From the NCBI RefSeq assembly GCF_003334305.1, contig NZ_QOWS01000026.1: DNA of 64,000 bases; one strand, written 5' to 3'. The stretch's first letter is position 1, and each line of letters starts with the position of its first letter. The DNA comes from Escherichia coli. GTDB taxonomy: Bacteria; Pseudomonadota; Gammaproteobacteria; Enterobacterales; Enterobacteriaceae. The notes beneath the pieces are model-generated. The model searched no databases and had not been told where the DNA came from. It saw only the letters and a program-made list of their open reading frames with translations. Of this stretch, positions 29,405 to 40,496 are shown one piece after another. Both the position numbers and the translations under genes were made by a program.

Positions 29405-30190
29405 CTACGCGTCTTCCTGGGGAAGAATGATTTCAATTTGGCTGTCTTGTAAGCGTGATTTTAGCGCAGCGGGCGGCAGCTCGTCGGTAAAGAGCGCAGT
29501 GACCTGTGCCACGTTACCAATTTCAACCGCCGCCGAAGCATGATACTTAGTGTGATCGGCGACCAGCAGAATATTTCTCGCGTGCGCCATCATCGTTTTC
29601 ACCACGTTAGCTTCGTTTACATCAAACTCCATCAACGCGCCATCGCTCTCAATCGCCCCAACGCTTGTTACCAGATAATCAGCACGAAAATCAGCCACAA
29701 AGGACGCCGCTGAAGGGCCAATGATCCCGCTATTATGAGAGCGCAACGTACCGCCGGGCACCATCACTTCAAAGCGCGGGTTGTGGTAAAGAATATGCGC
29801 CACACGCAGGCTGTTGGTGATTATCCGCAAATGATTATGGTTAAGTAACGCCCGGGCAACATGCTCAACAGTCGTACCAATGGTGATAAATATTGTTGAA
29901 CCATCAGGAATATAGTCTGCCACCGCTTCGGCAATCGCTTTTTTTTCCTCGGTTTGCGAAACCTCACGCTGCTCGAACGCCGTATTAACGACGCTGGAAG
30001 CCCGACCCGCGCCACCGTGATGGCGCGTAATCAGGCCTTGCTCGCTTAATTTACGAATATCCCGGCGGACCGTCTGCGTGGAGACATCCAGCAGATTTGC
30101 CAGCTCATCAATATTCATATACCCACGCTCGGCGATCAGCATGAGGAGTTGGTCGTGCCGCGGGTTACCGGTTAGTTCGGTAAGGCTCAT
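29405..30190 (-). CDS. yihW: DeoR-family regulator of sulfoquinovose catabolism (CsqR)
   Basis: 261 aa from MSLTELTGNPRHDQLLMLIAERGYMNIDELANLL; DeoR HTH. Confidence 0.88.
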   Translation of the reverse strand: MSLTELTGNPRHDQLLMLIAERGYMNIDELANLLDVSTQTVRRDIRKLSEQGLITRHHGGAGRASSVVNTAFEQREVSQTEEKKAIAEAVADYIPDGSTIFITIGTTVEHVARALLNHNHLRIITNSLRVAHILYHNPRFEVMVPGGTLRSHNSGIIGPSAASFVADFRADYLVTSVGAIESDGALMEFDVNEANVVKTMMAHARNILLVADHTKYHASAAVEIGNVAQVTALFTDELPPAALKSRLQDSQIEIILPQEDA

Positions 30191-30223
30191 GAAAATTCCT
30201 CGAAAAACCATCACCCTGGCATT

Positions 30224-31120
30224 TTATACAAAAAGTGACAAAAAAGATCGGGTTTGATCACAGTCAGGGATCCCGGCTCGTCCACCGGGACGTGTGCATT
30301 TTAACGCCGCTACACCGCTGGCGAAGCGGACTGACTCCGCTAAATCCCCACTTGTTGCCAGCGCCACCGCCAAAGCGCCGTGAAAAACATCACCCGCACC
30401 TGTGGTATCTACCACATCAACTTTGAAGGCCGGTTGATGCTGACGCCCACCATTTTCCAGCCAGTCGCAGCCTGCGCTACCCTGGGTCACATAGACATGA
30501 CCATTTGTGAGCGTTTGTGCCTGTTTTAGCGCACTGGCCATCTCTTTCACGCCCGTTAAGCGCGCCAGACCCGGTTCTGAAAAGGCCGCGTGATCGCTTA
30601 ATGCCACCAGCTCACTGATATCCTGCGGCGTAATGTCCCCGTCCAGAACGGTCATCACACCCGCCTGACGGGCCAGGGTGAAGGCTTTTTTAGCGCCGTC
30701 GTGCCAGCGTACATCTGCCAGCACAACATCCCACTGAGAGAAATCAATTTCCTCCAACCACTCTGCGTCAGGCAGCAGATCCGGGCTGGGGTAGTTAATG
30801 ATTATCCGCTCGCCTTTGGTATCCACCATGATGGCGGATTGCGAAGATTTCGCCTGGTTATACCGTTTGGTGTAACGGGTGTTAACGCCCCAGGATTCCA
30901 GCTCTGCCAGCAGGCTGTTGCCCGTGTCGTCATCACCTACGCGACCAATAAAATCGACCTGCGCCCCCAGCCTTGCCGCCGCAACCGCTGCCGTCGCCGC
31001 TGGCCCGCCACCAACTTCCGTATAATTTCTCGCCACGTATTTACCGCTCTCCGTCGGTAACCCTTCCACGTAATAGATGCGATCCATCACGGTTATACCT
31101 ACACAAGCAACACGAATCAT
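30224..31120 (-). CDS. yihV: 6-deoxy-6-sulfofructose kinase (PfkB family)
   Basis: 298 aa MIRVACVGITVMDRIYYVEG, ribokinase-like GAGD motif. Confidence 0.88.
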   Translation of the reverse strand: MIRVACVGITVMDRIYYVEGLPTESGKYVARNYTEVGGGPAATAAVAAARLGAQVDFIGRVGDDDTGNSLLAELESWGVNTRYTKRYNQAKSSQSAIMVDTKGERIIINYPSPDLLPDAEWLEEIDFSQWDVVLADVRWHDGAKKAFTLARQAGVMTVLDGDITPQDISELVALSDHAAFSEPGLARLTGVKEMASALKQAQTLTNGHVYVTQGSAGCDWLENGGRQHQPAFKVDVVDTTGAGDVFHGALAVALATSGDLAESVRFASGVAALKCTRPGGRAGIPDCDQTRSFLSLFV

Positions 31121-39050: not shown

Positions 39051-39092
39051 TAATAATAAACGACGCCCTGCGGGGCGTTATAAGGAGTGATT

Positions 39093-40496
39093 ATGTCTGA
39101 CCATAATCCACTGACATTAAAACTGAATCTGCGGGAAAAAATCGCCTATGGTATGGGCGACGTCGGTTCGAATTTAATGCTCTGCATCGGTACTCTGTAT
39201 CTCCTCAAATTTTATACCGATGAATTAGGGATGCCTGCTTACTATGGCGGGATTATCTTTCTGGTGGCGAAGTTTTTTACCGCGTTTACCGATATGCTCA
39301 CCGGATTTTTACTCGACTCGCGGAAAAATATTGGGCCTAAAGGCAAATTTCGTCCCTTTATTTTATATGCAGCGGTTCCGGCGGCGTTAATTGCAACGCT
39401 CCAGTTTATCGCCACCACCTTTTGTTTGCCGGTTAAAACGACGATTGCCACCGCGCTGTTTATGATGTTTGGACTTTCATACAGTCTGATGAACTGCTCG
39501 TATGGTGCGATGATCCCGGCAATTACCAAAAACCCGAATGAGCGCGCGCAGCTCGCGGCTTACCGCCAGGGTGGTGCAACCATAGGGCTATTGATTTGTA
39601 CCGTGGCGTTTATTCCGTTGCAGTCGCTTTTTTCTGACTCAACCGTCGGTTATGCCTGTGCGGCACTTATGTTCTCCATTGGCGGCTTTATTTTTATGAT
39701 GCTGTGCTACAGAGGCGTCAAAGAGCATTATGTGGACACAGCGCCAACCGGACATAAAGCCAGTATTCTCAAATCTTTTTGCGCGATATTTCGTAATCCA
39801 CCATTGCTGGTTTTATGCATTGCTAACCTGTGTACTCTGGCGGCATTTAATATCAAACTGGCGATTCAGGTCTATTACACCCAGTATGTGCTGAATGATA
39901 TTAATTTATTGTCGTGGATGGGATTCTTCAGTATGGGATGCATCCTCGTCGGCGTATTACTGGTGCCAGTAACTGTAAAATGTTTTGGTAAAAAACAGGT
40001 TTATTTAGCTGGCATGGTGCTATGGGCGGTGGGTGATATCCTGAATTATTTCTGGGGAAGTAACTCTTTCACTTTCGTCATGTTCTCTTGTGTCGCCTTT
40101 TTTGGCACGGCCTTTGTAAACAGCCTGAACTGGGCACTGGTACCAGATACCGTAGATTACGGTGAATGGAAAACCGGTATTCGTGCCGAAGGTTCTGTTT
40201 ATACCGGTTATACCTTCTTTCGTAAAATTTCTGCCGCACTTGCTGGCTTCTTGCCAGGCATTATGCTGACGCAAATTGGTTATGTTCCCAACATCGCGCA
40301 AAGCGATGCGACATTACAGGGTTTGCGTCAGCTCATTTTTATCTGGCCTTGTGCACTGGCAATTATTGCTGCATTGACGATGGGATTCTTTTACACACTC
40401 AATGAAAAACGGTTTGCATTGATTATTGAGGAAATCAACCAACGCAAAAATAAAGAGATGGCGACAGAAGAAAAAACGGCTTCCGTAACGTTATAA
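39093..40496 (+). CDS. yihO: GPH-family sulfoquinovose transporter
   Basis: 467 aa from MSDHNPLTLKLNLREKIAYGMGDVGSN; paralog of yihP. Confidence 0.85.
   Translation: MSDHNPLTLKLNLREKIAYGMGDVGSNLMLCIGTLYLLKFYTDELGMPAYYGGIIFLVAKFFTAFTDMLTGFLLDSRKNIGPKGKFRPFILYAAVPAALIATLQFIATTFCLPVKTTIATALFMMFGLSYSLMNCSYGAMIPAITKNPNERAQLAAYRQGGATIGLLICTVAFIPLQSLFSDSTVGYACAALMFSIGGFIFMMLCYRGVKEHYVDTAPTGHKASILKSFCAIFRNPPLLVLCIANLCTLAAFNIKLAIQVYYTQYVLNDINLLSWMGFFSMGCILVGVLLVPVTVKCFGKKQVYLAGMVLWAVGDILNYFWGSNSFTFVMFSCVAFFGTAFVNSLNWALVPDTVDYGEWKTGIRAEGSVYTGYTFFRKISAALAGFLPGIMLTQIGYVPNIAQSDATLQGLRQLIFIWPCALAIIAALTMGFFYTLNEKRFALIIEEINQRKNKEMATEEKTASVTL

Follow-up and report, generated by a model that had tools for sequence, protein, structure and literature searches.

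The reference sulfo-EMP pathway is encoded by the cassette of Escherichia coli K-12 MG1655 (ompL-yihOPQRSTU / yihV-csqR, b3875–b3884). The pathway was established on the K-12 proteins, and ompL is counted as one of the ten genes of the cassette (PMC12608037, PMC8006165). In K-12, sulfoquinovose induces this long cassette and supports growth (PMC12608037). Cassettes of two other types lie at the same chromosomal locus. The short cassette yihTUVW, found in E. coli Nissle 1917 and many pathogens, encodes a homologous regulator, kinase, reductase and aldolase (PMC12608037). The eleven-gene cassette of the Salmonella/O157:H7 type shares the ten K-12 genes and their order, with fabY-dtd-yihY-yihX on one side and ompL on the other, and holds in addition a TauE/SafE-family permease gene between yihR and yihQ, which is present in Salmonella and in 1288 of 5426 complete E. 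coli genomes, O157:H7 included. Of complete E. coli genomes, about 72% have the long cassette and about 28% are without yihQ; the TauE-containing form accounts for about a third of the E. coli long cassettes.

Here we describe the yih locus in a stretch of E. coli DNA of 64,000 nucleotides, referred to below as the window. As judged from its sequence, the segment 29405–40496 is very probably an intact sulfoquinovose (yih) cluster of the K-12 type, specifying the sulfo-EMP pathway. Since it is intact and almost identical to the K-12 version, it is an already known, ordinary and explained feature; as a textbook locus, here near-identical to the reference, the cluster alone matters little.

Comparison with the K-12 cassette

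All 11,092 bases of 29405–40496 are matched at 100% identity by several E. coli chromosomes, where the annotated genes are csqR, yihV, yihU, yihT, yihS, yihR, yihQ, yihP and yihO. This agrees with the first-pass annotation, which had named the nine genes yihW, V, U, T, S, R, Q, P and O from the letters alone. Its end coordinates proved exact, position 29405 being the final base of the csqR stop codon (minus strand) and 40496 the final base of the yihO stop codon, and so did its statement that the frames are uninterrupted: each gene is as long as in K-12, begins with a start codon, ends with a stop codon and is free of internal stops. The comparison with the K-12 cluster that it had proposed as a check shows the region from yihX to yihN (28707–42612) to be colinear with K-12; the alignment spans 13,906 bases without a gap and contains 88 mismatches (99.4% identity).

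The window and K-12 have in common the ten genes, their order and orientation, the intergenic lengths, the site of the BoxC repeat and the neighbours yihX and yihN, between which ompL-yihO-P-Q-R-S-T-U lie on one strand and yihV-csqR diverge from them. The window thus carries the long cassette, with yihS, R, Q, P, O and ompL, instead of the short yihTUVW form (PMC12608037). The earlier description of the gene set as complete stands in part. The nine named genes are intact, but the published cassette has ten, and ompL lies past the end of the described segment; the set is complete against the K-12 reference, whereas Salmonella and the 1288 complete E. coli genomes hold the extra TauE/SafE-family gene. 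A useful comparative by-product is that the "completeness" of a cassette depends on the reference chosen.

The 88 substitutions are concentrated in yihP and the 3' half of yihR. Along the sequence, divergence from K-12 stays low between about 29000 and 35000 and becomes patchy further on, with clusters in yihR (3' half), yihP and fabY. Taken together, the ten proteins differ from those of K-12 at 18 amino acids, of which YihR accounts for 8; CsqR, YihV, YihT and YihS are identical to the K-12 proteins, the other six differ at 1 to 8 residues, and none of the differences falls at the published key residues checked. A scan with Rfam at gathering thresholds returned no RNA family in 28000–42000. 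Per protein, the cassette shows 0–8 amino-acid differences from K-12, and it has no indels. All ten genes are under purifying selection, with dN/dS values against O157 of 0.00 to 0.10.

Genes, products and predicted pathway

Two of the genes lie on the minus strand. The first, csqR (yihW; 29405–30190), encodes the cassette's repressor, a DeoR-family protein of 261 aa; the gene has 100% nucleotide identity to b3884 and is annotated by the name csqR in strain A5. Both Met1 and Met25, at which the published short form begins, are present. The second, yihV (30224–31120), encodes sulfofructose kinase (298 aa) and is 100% identical to b3883. On the plus strand, yihU (31288–32184) encodes sulfolactaldehyde reductase (298 aa), with A161S as the sole amino-acid change, yihT (32208–33086) encodes sulfofructose-1-phosphate aldolase (292 aa) and is 100% identical to b3881, and yihS (33103–34344) encodes a sulfoquinovose isomerase (413 aa) identical to that of K-12, with one synonymous base change.

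Further along the plus strand, yihQ (35583–37619) encodes the GH31 sulfoquinovosidase (678 aa), with V420I and T563S relative to K-12; the protein aligns over residues 1–678 with the E. coli YihQ of known structure, 5AED (1632 bits). The gene yihP (37665–39050) encodes a GPH-family transporter of 461 aa, a putative exporter of dihydroxypropanesulfonate (DHPS), and differs from K-12 at 25 bases and three amino acids, with a dN/dS against O157 of 0.013. The gene yihO (39093–40496) encodes a second GPH-family transporter of 467 aa, a putative sulfoquinovose importer with three amino-acid differences. Both transporters reported from the sequence are confirmed by full-length matches to the profile TIGR00792, whose cut-off of 231.35 bits is exceeded by YihP (536.6) and YihO (528.9). 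The tenth gene, ompL (40564–41256, plus strand), encodes an outer-membrane porin and is intact, with one amino-acid difference from K-12. It should be noted that even for K-12 the roles of YihO in import, of YihP in export and of OmpL carry the label putative.

In the profile search, the NCBIfam cut-offs were passed by YihU (NF012005, sulfolactaldehyde 3-reductase, 602 bits against 348), YihR (NF011719, 617 against 251), YihQ, YihP, YihO and OmpL (NF007434, porin OmpL, 473 against 288). CsqR, YihV, YihT and YihS were under all NCBIfam cut-offs, the best match of CsqR being DeoR/GlpR with 257 bits against 331, so the assignment of these four rests on their identity to the K-12 proteins.

All 29 of the 29 sulfonate-pocket and catalytic residues checked in YihS, YihV, YihT, YihQ and YihU are present. 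YihQ retains Arg301, Trp304 and Tyr508 together with Asp405 and Asp472, which we take to be key residues of the enzyme, and YihU retains Arg123, Asn174 and Ser178 together with Lys171, presumably a key residue as well. YihV keeps Lys27, Asn109 and Arg138 of the sulfonate pocket as well as Asp244, Asp13, Ser95 and Asp162; YihT keeps the Schiff-base Lys193 with Arg253, Ala26, Ser226 and Ser227; and YihS keeps Arg55, Gln362, Gln379, Phe239, Trp316, Trp51, Trp375 and Arg238. Apart from Asp405 and Asp472 of YihQ and Lys171 of YihU, the residue list is that of PMC8006165; it did not extend to YihR, for which no such residues were to hand.

The gene yihR (34458–35384, plus strand) encodes an aldose-1-epimerase, the putative sulfoquinovose mutarotase. 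Counted from the K-12 start it has 308 aa, and PGAP, using the second ATG at 34482, gives it 300 aa; the NF011719 profile starts at residue 9. Relative to K-12 there are 9 synonymous and 8 non-synonymous base changes, and seven of the eight amino-acid differences lie in the 3' half. Decay of the gene was considered and rejected, because its dN/dS against O157 is 0.10, because about 985 genomes carry an allele at least 99% identical to that of the window, and because the substitution P170T, which adjoins a conserved histidine, gives the threonine that is also found there in the solved Bacillus aldose-1-epimerase 4BZF.

The steps of the predicted pathway are those published for the K-12 proteins, to which the present ones are nearly identical. 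Sulfoquinovose glycosides would probably pass the outer membrane through OmpL and be imported by the GPH transporter YihO, after which YihQ would release sulfoquinovose and YihR would interconvert its anomers. YihS would convert sulfoquinovose to sulfofructose, to be phosphorylated by YihV, and YihT would cleave the phosphorylated product into dihydroxyacetone phosphate, which would enter glycolysis, and sulfolactaldehyde. The latter would be reduced by YihU to DHPS, which would leave the cell putatively via YihP. The divergent yihV and yihU promoters would be repressed by CsqR, and the repressor is expected to leave the DNA once bound to sulfoquinovose, its glycerol glycoside or sulforhamnose.

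By analogy with K-12, which has the same gene set, we infer that the strain would grow on sulfoquinovose, and it is predicted to be able to use sulfoquinovose from dietary plant sulfolipid. This would be relevant to gut ecology, since bacteria that produce sulfite and sulfide feed on the DHPS excreted.

It could be argued that the cassette, intact as it is in sequence, is silent or impaired for sulfoquinovose, be it owing to the changes in YihR, because the TauE-family exporter is absent, or through factors that lie outside the window. YihR does carry 8 substitutions relative to K-12, the TauE gene is missing from the window, and E. coli strains are known to differ in cassette structure and transcriptional response (PMC12608037). 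We nevertheless consider such impairment very improbable. K-12 likewise has these ten genes and lacks TauE, yet it grows on sulfoquinovose and induces the cassette (PMC12608037); in regulator, control region and four core enzymes the window matches K-12 exactly or almost exactly; and the YihR changes belong to an allele that, at 99% identity or more, is shared by about 985 genomes and shows a dN/dS of 0.10 against O157. The most improbable reading, to which we give hardly any weight, is that yihS, yihT, yihV and csqR serve mainly a role outside sulfoglycolysis, for instance in the accessory pathway for lactose proposed by Kaznadzey et al., with sulfoquinovose as only one function: lactose strongly induces yihT, yihS and yihV and YihW has a dual role by carbon source (PMC5816610), yet the three core enzymes are reported to show high selectivity for the sulfonated intermediates and to possess dedicated sulfonate pockets (PMC8006165), whose residues are all kept here, lactose as a CsqR effector is unconfirmed by gel shifts (PMC10991401), and a lactose-related role would be an addition, not a true alternative.

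The control region and the BoxC repeat

The K-12-type cluster also retains its regulatory spacer. The divergent yihV/yihU control region (31121–31287, 167 bp), listed by the first-pass annotation as present, is identical to K-12 at 166 of 167 bases. The exception is position 31267, where the window, O157 and Salmonella have C and K-12 has A, so that K-12 is the odd one out. The mean column identity of the region among the window, K-12, O157 and Salmonella is 96%, and GTGAC/TGACA motifs recur in it. Binding sites for CsqR and CRP and several promoters have been located in this spacer (PMC5816610, PMC8006165, PMC12608037), and at the level of sequence it would qualify as a CsqR-controlled divergent promoter region.

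A consensus scan of 29000–41600 returned 12 promoter-like and 23 terminator-like sites, where shuffled sequence led to expectations of 13.5 and 15.9 ± 4.0; in view of these counts the scan is uninformative, and it placed no site in the yihV/yihU spacer.

The BoxC-like repeat noted earlier between yihS and yihR is real. It occupies 34373–34407 on the minus strand, inside the 113-bp spacer between the two genes (34345–34457), and is of type A (TTA loop). It matches the published BoxC/TMECO consensus CCCTCNCCC-N3-6-GGGNGAGGG-N3-GGGNGAGGG with zero mismatches, and 100 shuffles gave 0 matches. The 113-bp spacer has matches at a median of 18 places in an E. coli genome, which marks the repeat as dispersed and multi-copy. 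In its intergenic placement, type and locus it agrees with a described BoxC / PIT / TMECO repeat, TMECO no. 21 of Table 1 in PMC4666352 (K-12 4070452–4070487, between yihR and yihS). The copy differs from that of K-12 by one base at 34378, the window having GGGTGAGGG and K-12 GGGAGAGGG, both of which are compatible with the consensus GGGNGAGGG; in the other K-12 copies taken from Table 1 of PMC4666352, the base at the varying position is T.

The BoxC between yihS and yihR is a copy of a known dispersed repeat at a known K-12 site, with a role that is at most putative. As single-stranded DNA the yihS–yihR spacer has a fold of −25 kcal/mol (z = −3.2), which is an ordinary hairpin fold; for other BoxC copies an intrastrand triplex has been seen in vitro, with no in vivo support (PMC4666352). 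We also considered the repeat as a recombination boundary and rejected this, since the patches of divergence are ordinary E. coli mosaicism with no tie to BoxC.

The yihR–yihQ spacer and the TauE/SafE gene

The spacer between yihR and yihQ (35385–35582; 198 bp, 31% GC) is identical to that of K-12 and contains no PF01925 gene, which sets the window apart from the eleven-gene cassette. The place of the TauE/SafE gene of O157-type E. coli and Salmonella is taken by an unrelated sequence of 133 bp and 28% GC at 35393–35525. A tblastn search with the O157 TauE protein gave no match in the spacer or in the whole 64-kb window, and short-word blastn for a remnant of the gene aligned the spacer ends only, with no protein-level trace. 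Because only the ends align and the protein trace is absent, a simple internal deletion of the TauE gene is unsupported, and the segment appears to have been replaced, not merely deleted.

The eleven-gene type differs from the window in other respects as well. Its yihR is about 94% identical, its ompL is very divergent (dS 0.56), and the yihS–yihR spacers of O157 and Salmonella are without BoxC, where the window has about 100 bp of additional, BoxC-bearing sequence. A further proposal, to which we give an even chance, is that the ten-gene, K-12-type cassette is derived from that of an ancestor shared with Salmonella. The ancestor would have carried the eleventh gene, a TauE/SafE-family permease that is probably a C3-sulfonate exporter, later replaced by the 133 bp of AT-rich sequence; the yihS–yihR spacer would have gained BoxC, and yihR, between the two altered spacers, would be the most polymorphic gene save ompL. 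The proposal was not found in the yih literature covered, to which Denger et al. 2014 and Shimada et al. 2019 did not belong.

If the ten-gene form is indeed derived, E. coli would have three cassette classes (eleven-gene, ten-gene and short) and not the two described, and the ten-gene and eleven-gene classes might differ in the mode or efficiency of DHPS export. Close homologues of TauE also occur in sulfo-ED-like clusters of other Enterobacterales, and on that basis the TauE-family gene is a candidate sulfonate exporter.

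Gene content, conservation and predicted function

The sulfoquinovose locus in the window is already known: several complete E. coli chromosomes match 29405–40496 at 100% over all 11,092 bases, and their annotation lists csqR, yihV, yihU, yihT, yihS, yihR, yihQ, yihP and yihO. The first-pass annotation had claimed these nine genes with uninterrupted frames and named the K-12 cluster as a check; its coordinates are exact, one end falling at the csqR stop codon and the other at that of yihO. Compared with K-12 MG1655 (NC_000913.3), the region from yihX to yihN (28707–42612) forms a single ungapped block with 88 mismatches in 13,906 bases (99.4% identity). 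All genes have exactly the K-12 length, a start and a stop codon and no internal stops, which bears out the claim, and a mechanical list of open frames agrees with the annotated genes.

CsqR, YihV, YihT and YihS show no amino-acid differences from K-12, YihU (A161S) and OmpL show one each, YihQ two (V420I, T563S), YihP and YihO three each, and YihR eight. The base differences are clustered at 35039–35363, the 3' half of yihR (16 in 325 bp, with 7 amino-acid changes), and in yihP (38000–38999), a gene whose 25 base differences give only the three changes, versus 5 differences in the 5.9 kb of 29000–34900. These clusters look like ordinary recombination mosaicism.

Six proteins exceeded the NCBIfam curated cut-offs: YihU (sulfolactaldehyde 3-reductase, 602 bits versus 348), YihR (aldose-1-epimerase, 617 versus 251), YihQ (alpha-glucosidase NF007746, 1246 versus 553), YihP and YihO (GPH symporter TIGR00792, 537 and 529 versus 231) and OmpL (porin OmpL, 473 versus 288). 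The two transporters thus belong to the GPH family, as first described. None of CsqR, YihV, YihT and YihS reached a cut-off in NCBIfam; these four are assigned because they are identical to K-12 proteins that have been characterised. YihQ also matches the solved E. coli sulfoquinovosidase structure 5AED over its full length. Asp405 and Asp472 of YihQ and Lys171 of YihU, which we take to be further key residues, are present in the window proteins. Every sulfonate-pocket or catalytic residue checked from published structural work is retained in YihS (Arg55, Gln362, Gln379), YihV (Lys27, Asn109, Arg138), YihT (Lys193, Arg253, Ala26), YihQ (Arg301, Trp304, Tyr508) and YihU (Arg123, Asn174, Ser178), as are eight more ligand-contact residues of YihS, YihV and YihT (PMC8006165). 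The dN/dS ratios against the more distant O157:H7 alleles are 0.00 to 0.10 for all ten genes, ompL among them, indicating purifying selection on the whole set, yihR included.

By extension from K-12 physiology, the set would encode the published sulfo-EMP pathway, visible in the window at the level of sequence. OmpL and YihO would mediate uptake, YihQ would cleave the glycoside, YihR would interconvert the anomers, YihS would carry out isomerisation and YihV phosphorylation; aldol cleavage by YihT would yield dihydroxyacetone phosphate and sulfolactaldehyde, the latter being reduced by YihU to dihydroxypropanesulfonate for export, putatively through YihP, with CsqR as the repressor responsive to sulfoquinovose.

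Extent of the cassette and the TauE variant

The description of the gene set as complete holds for the K-12 set, with two reservations. As defined in two papers (PMC12608037, PMC8006165), the complete cassette has ten members; one of them, the porin gene ompL, is intact at 40564–41256 and lies 67 bases past the end of the range first proposed. Moreover, O157:H7 strain Z1615 and strain EC32 carry between yihR and yihQ an extra gene, annotated as "sulfite exporter TauE/SafE family protein" (291 aa), which the window lacks. This absence does not undermine the claim, because K-12, with the same ten genes, induces the cassette on sulfoquinovose and can grow on this sugar (PMC12608037).

At the TauE position the window has a 133-bp stretch of 28% GC (35393–35525), unrelated to the TauE gene and found likewise in K-12; no similarity between it and the TauE segment was detected at the nucleotide or protein level, and no TauE homologue was found anywhere within the 64 kb. 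The loci compared were window 35385–35582, 9765–10807 of the O157:H7 locus (L009) and 8913–9999 of the Salmonella locus (L010). In Salmonella enterica, the chromosomal locus, the eleven genes and their order are all the same, and the TauE protein is 87% identical. In the Klebsiella quasipneumoniae cassette, the TauE gene follows yihQ and is followed by a single GPH transporter; the homologue in the Klebsiella sulfo-EMP cassette is ~80% identical. TauE proteins ~80% identical also stand at the cluster end in Hafnia and Enterobacter kobei, where the clusters encode dehydratase, HpcH aldolase, epimerase, lactonase and two dehydrogenase domains and, judged from Pfam domains only, look sulfo-Entner-Doudoroff-like. 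The simplest interpretation, drawn from only a few outgroups, makes the eleven-gene form ancestral and the K-12-type form of the window derived. Mention of the TauE variant was not found in the cassette literature searched, Denger et al. 2014 lying outside that search.

By megablast at ≥80% query coverage, the whole cluster in one piece was found in 3886 of 5426 complete E. coli genomes, yihQ in 3887, the csqR–yihT block in 4022, yihR in 3959 and the full BoxC spacer in 2248. TauE is carried by 1288 of the 5426, so that about a third of the long cassettes have eleven genes. A "short" yihTUVW form has been described (PMC12608037) and presumably occurs among the genomes without yihQ. yihR is more polymorphic than yihQ, with 90–95% identity to the window in 1343 versus 79 genomes; the size of this divergent yihR class is near the number of TauE carriers. 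The ompL gene is 99.1% identical to K-12; against the O157 allele its dS is 0.56 and its dN 0.040, the neighbouring genes having dS of 0.03–0.23. With ompL so much more divergent than its neighbours, E. coli seems to hold distinct classes of porin alleles.

Intergenic regions

The divergent yihV/yihU control region noted in the first-pass annotation is present (31121–31287, 167 bp) and differs from K-12 at a single base, 31267; in an alignment including O157:H7 and Salmonella, mean column identity is 96%. Position 31267 is C in the window, O157 and Salmonella and A in K-12; the window therefore has the common state. The K-12-specific base falls 21 bases 5' of the yihU ATG, in the stretch where transcription of yihU has been mapped to begin, at −15 and −25 (PMC5816610). 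In published work, the spacer contains several promoters and CRP sites (PMC5816610) and is bound cooperatively by CsqR, with sulfoquinovose, sulfoquinovosyl glycerol and sulforhamnose as the releasing ligands (PMC8006165, PMC12608037). A consensus promoter scan gave no signal above chance.

The boxC-like repeat reported between yihS and yihR was correctly recognised. The element at 34373–34407 (minus strand, CCCTCGCCCCTTTGGGGAGAGGGTTAGGGTGAGGG) fits the published BoxC/PIT/TMECO consensus (PMC4666352) with 0 mismatches, versus 0 matches in 100 shuffles of the window. It is one base (34378) apart from copy no. 21 of Table 1 in that paper, at K-12 4,070,452–4,070,487, which the K-12 annotation places between yihR and yihS. 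The 113-bp yihS–yihR spacer has a median of 18 matching places per E. coli genome. In the O157-type, the yihS–yihR spacer lacks the BoxC and is ~66 bp long. Such elements formed a triplex in vitro, in vivo support was not found, and sequence variability around them is raised; earlier work cited there found no promoter or terminator activity (PMC4666352).

For yihR there are two candidate starts, ATG 34458 (K-12 annotation, 308 aa) and ATG 34482 (PGAP, 300 aa). The second is favoured, because in O157 the counterpart of the first ATG is part of the spacer hairpin (ACGACATA...TATGTCGT). The NCBIfam profile on YihR starts at residue 9. In the window, a 7-bp hairpin (34439–34456, CAGCCTC-ACGG-GAGGCTG) ends two bases 5' of the first ATG.

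Other differences from K-12

At 24411–26420, ~2 kb are missing from K-12, where 475 bp stand. The small gene pair at 24618–25220 (minus strand), annotated in E. coli strain A5 as a NadS-family protein and a hypothetical protein, looks like a toxin–antitoxin pair. An alpha/beta-hydrolase frame (25374–26357, 327 aa) is open in the window and frameshifted in strain A5 according to PGAP. Adjoining this indel lies another local patch of divergence, in fabY (26500–26999), where 31 of 500 positions differ from K-12 against 4 to 6 per 500 bp in adjacent bins. The K-12 alignment also breaks at 48235–48439, corresponding to K-12 4056452–4056625, where the glnZ small RNA is annotated downstream of glnA, and at 51246–51277, near yshB. 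Finally, the 137 bp at 8864–9000 give three staggered matches in the K-12 rhaD–rhaA spacer (~4094399–4094626), which means that a ~92-bp repeat is present there in more tandem copies in K-12 than in the window.
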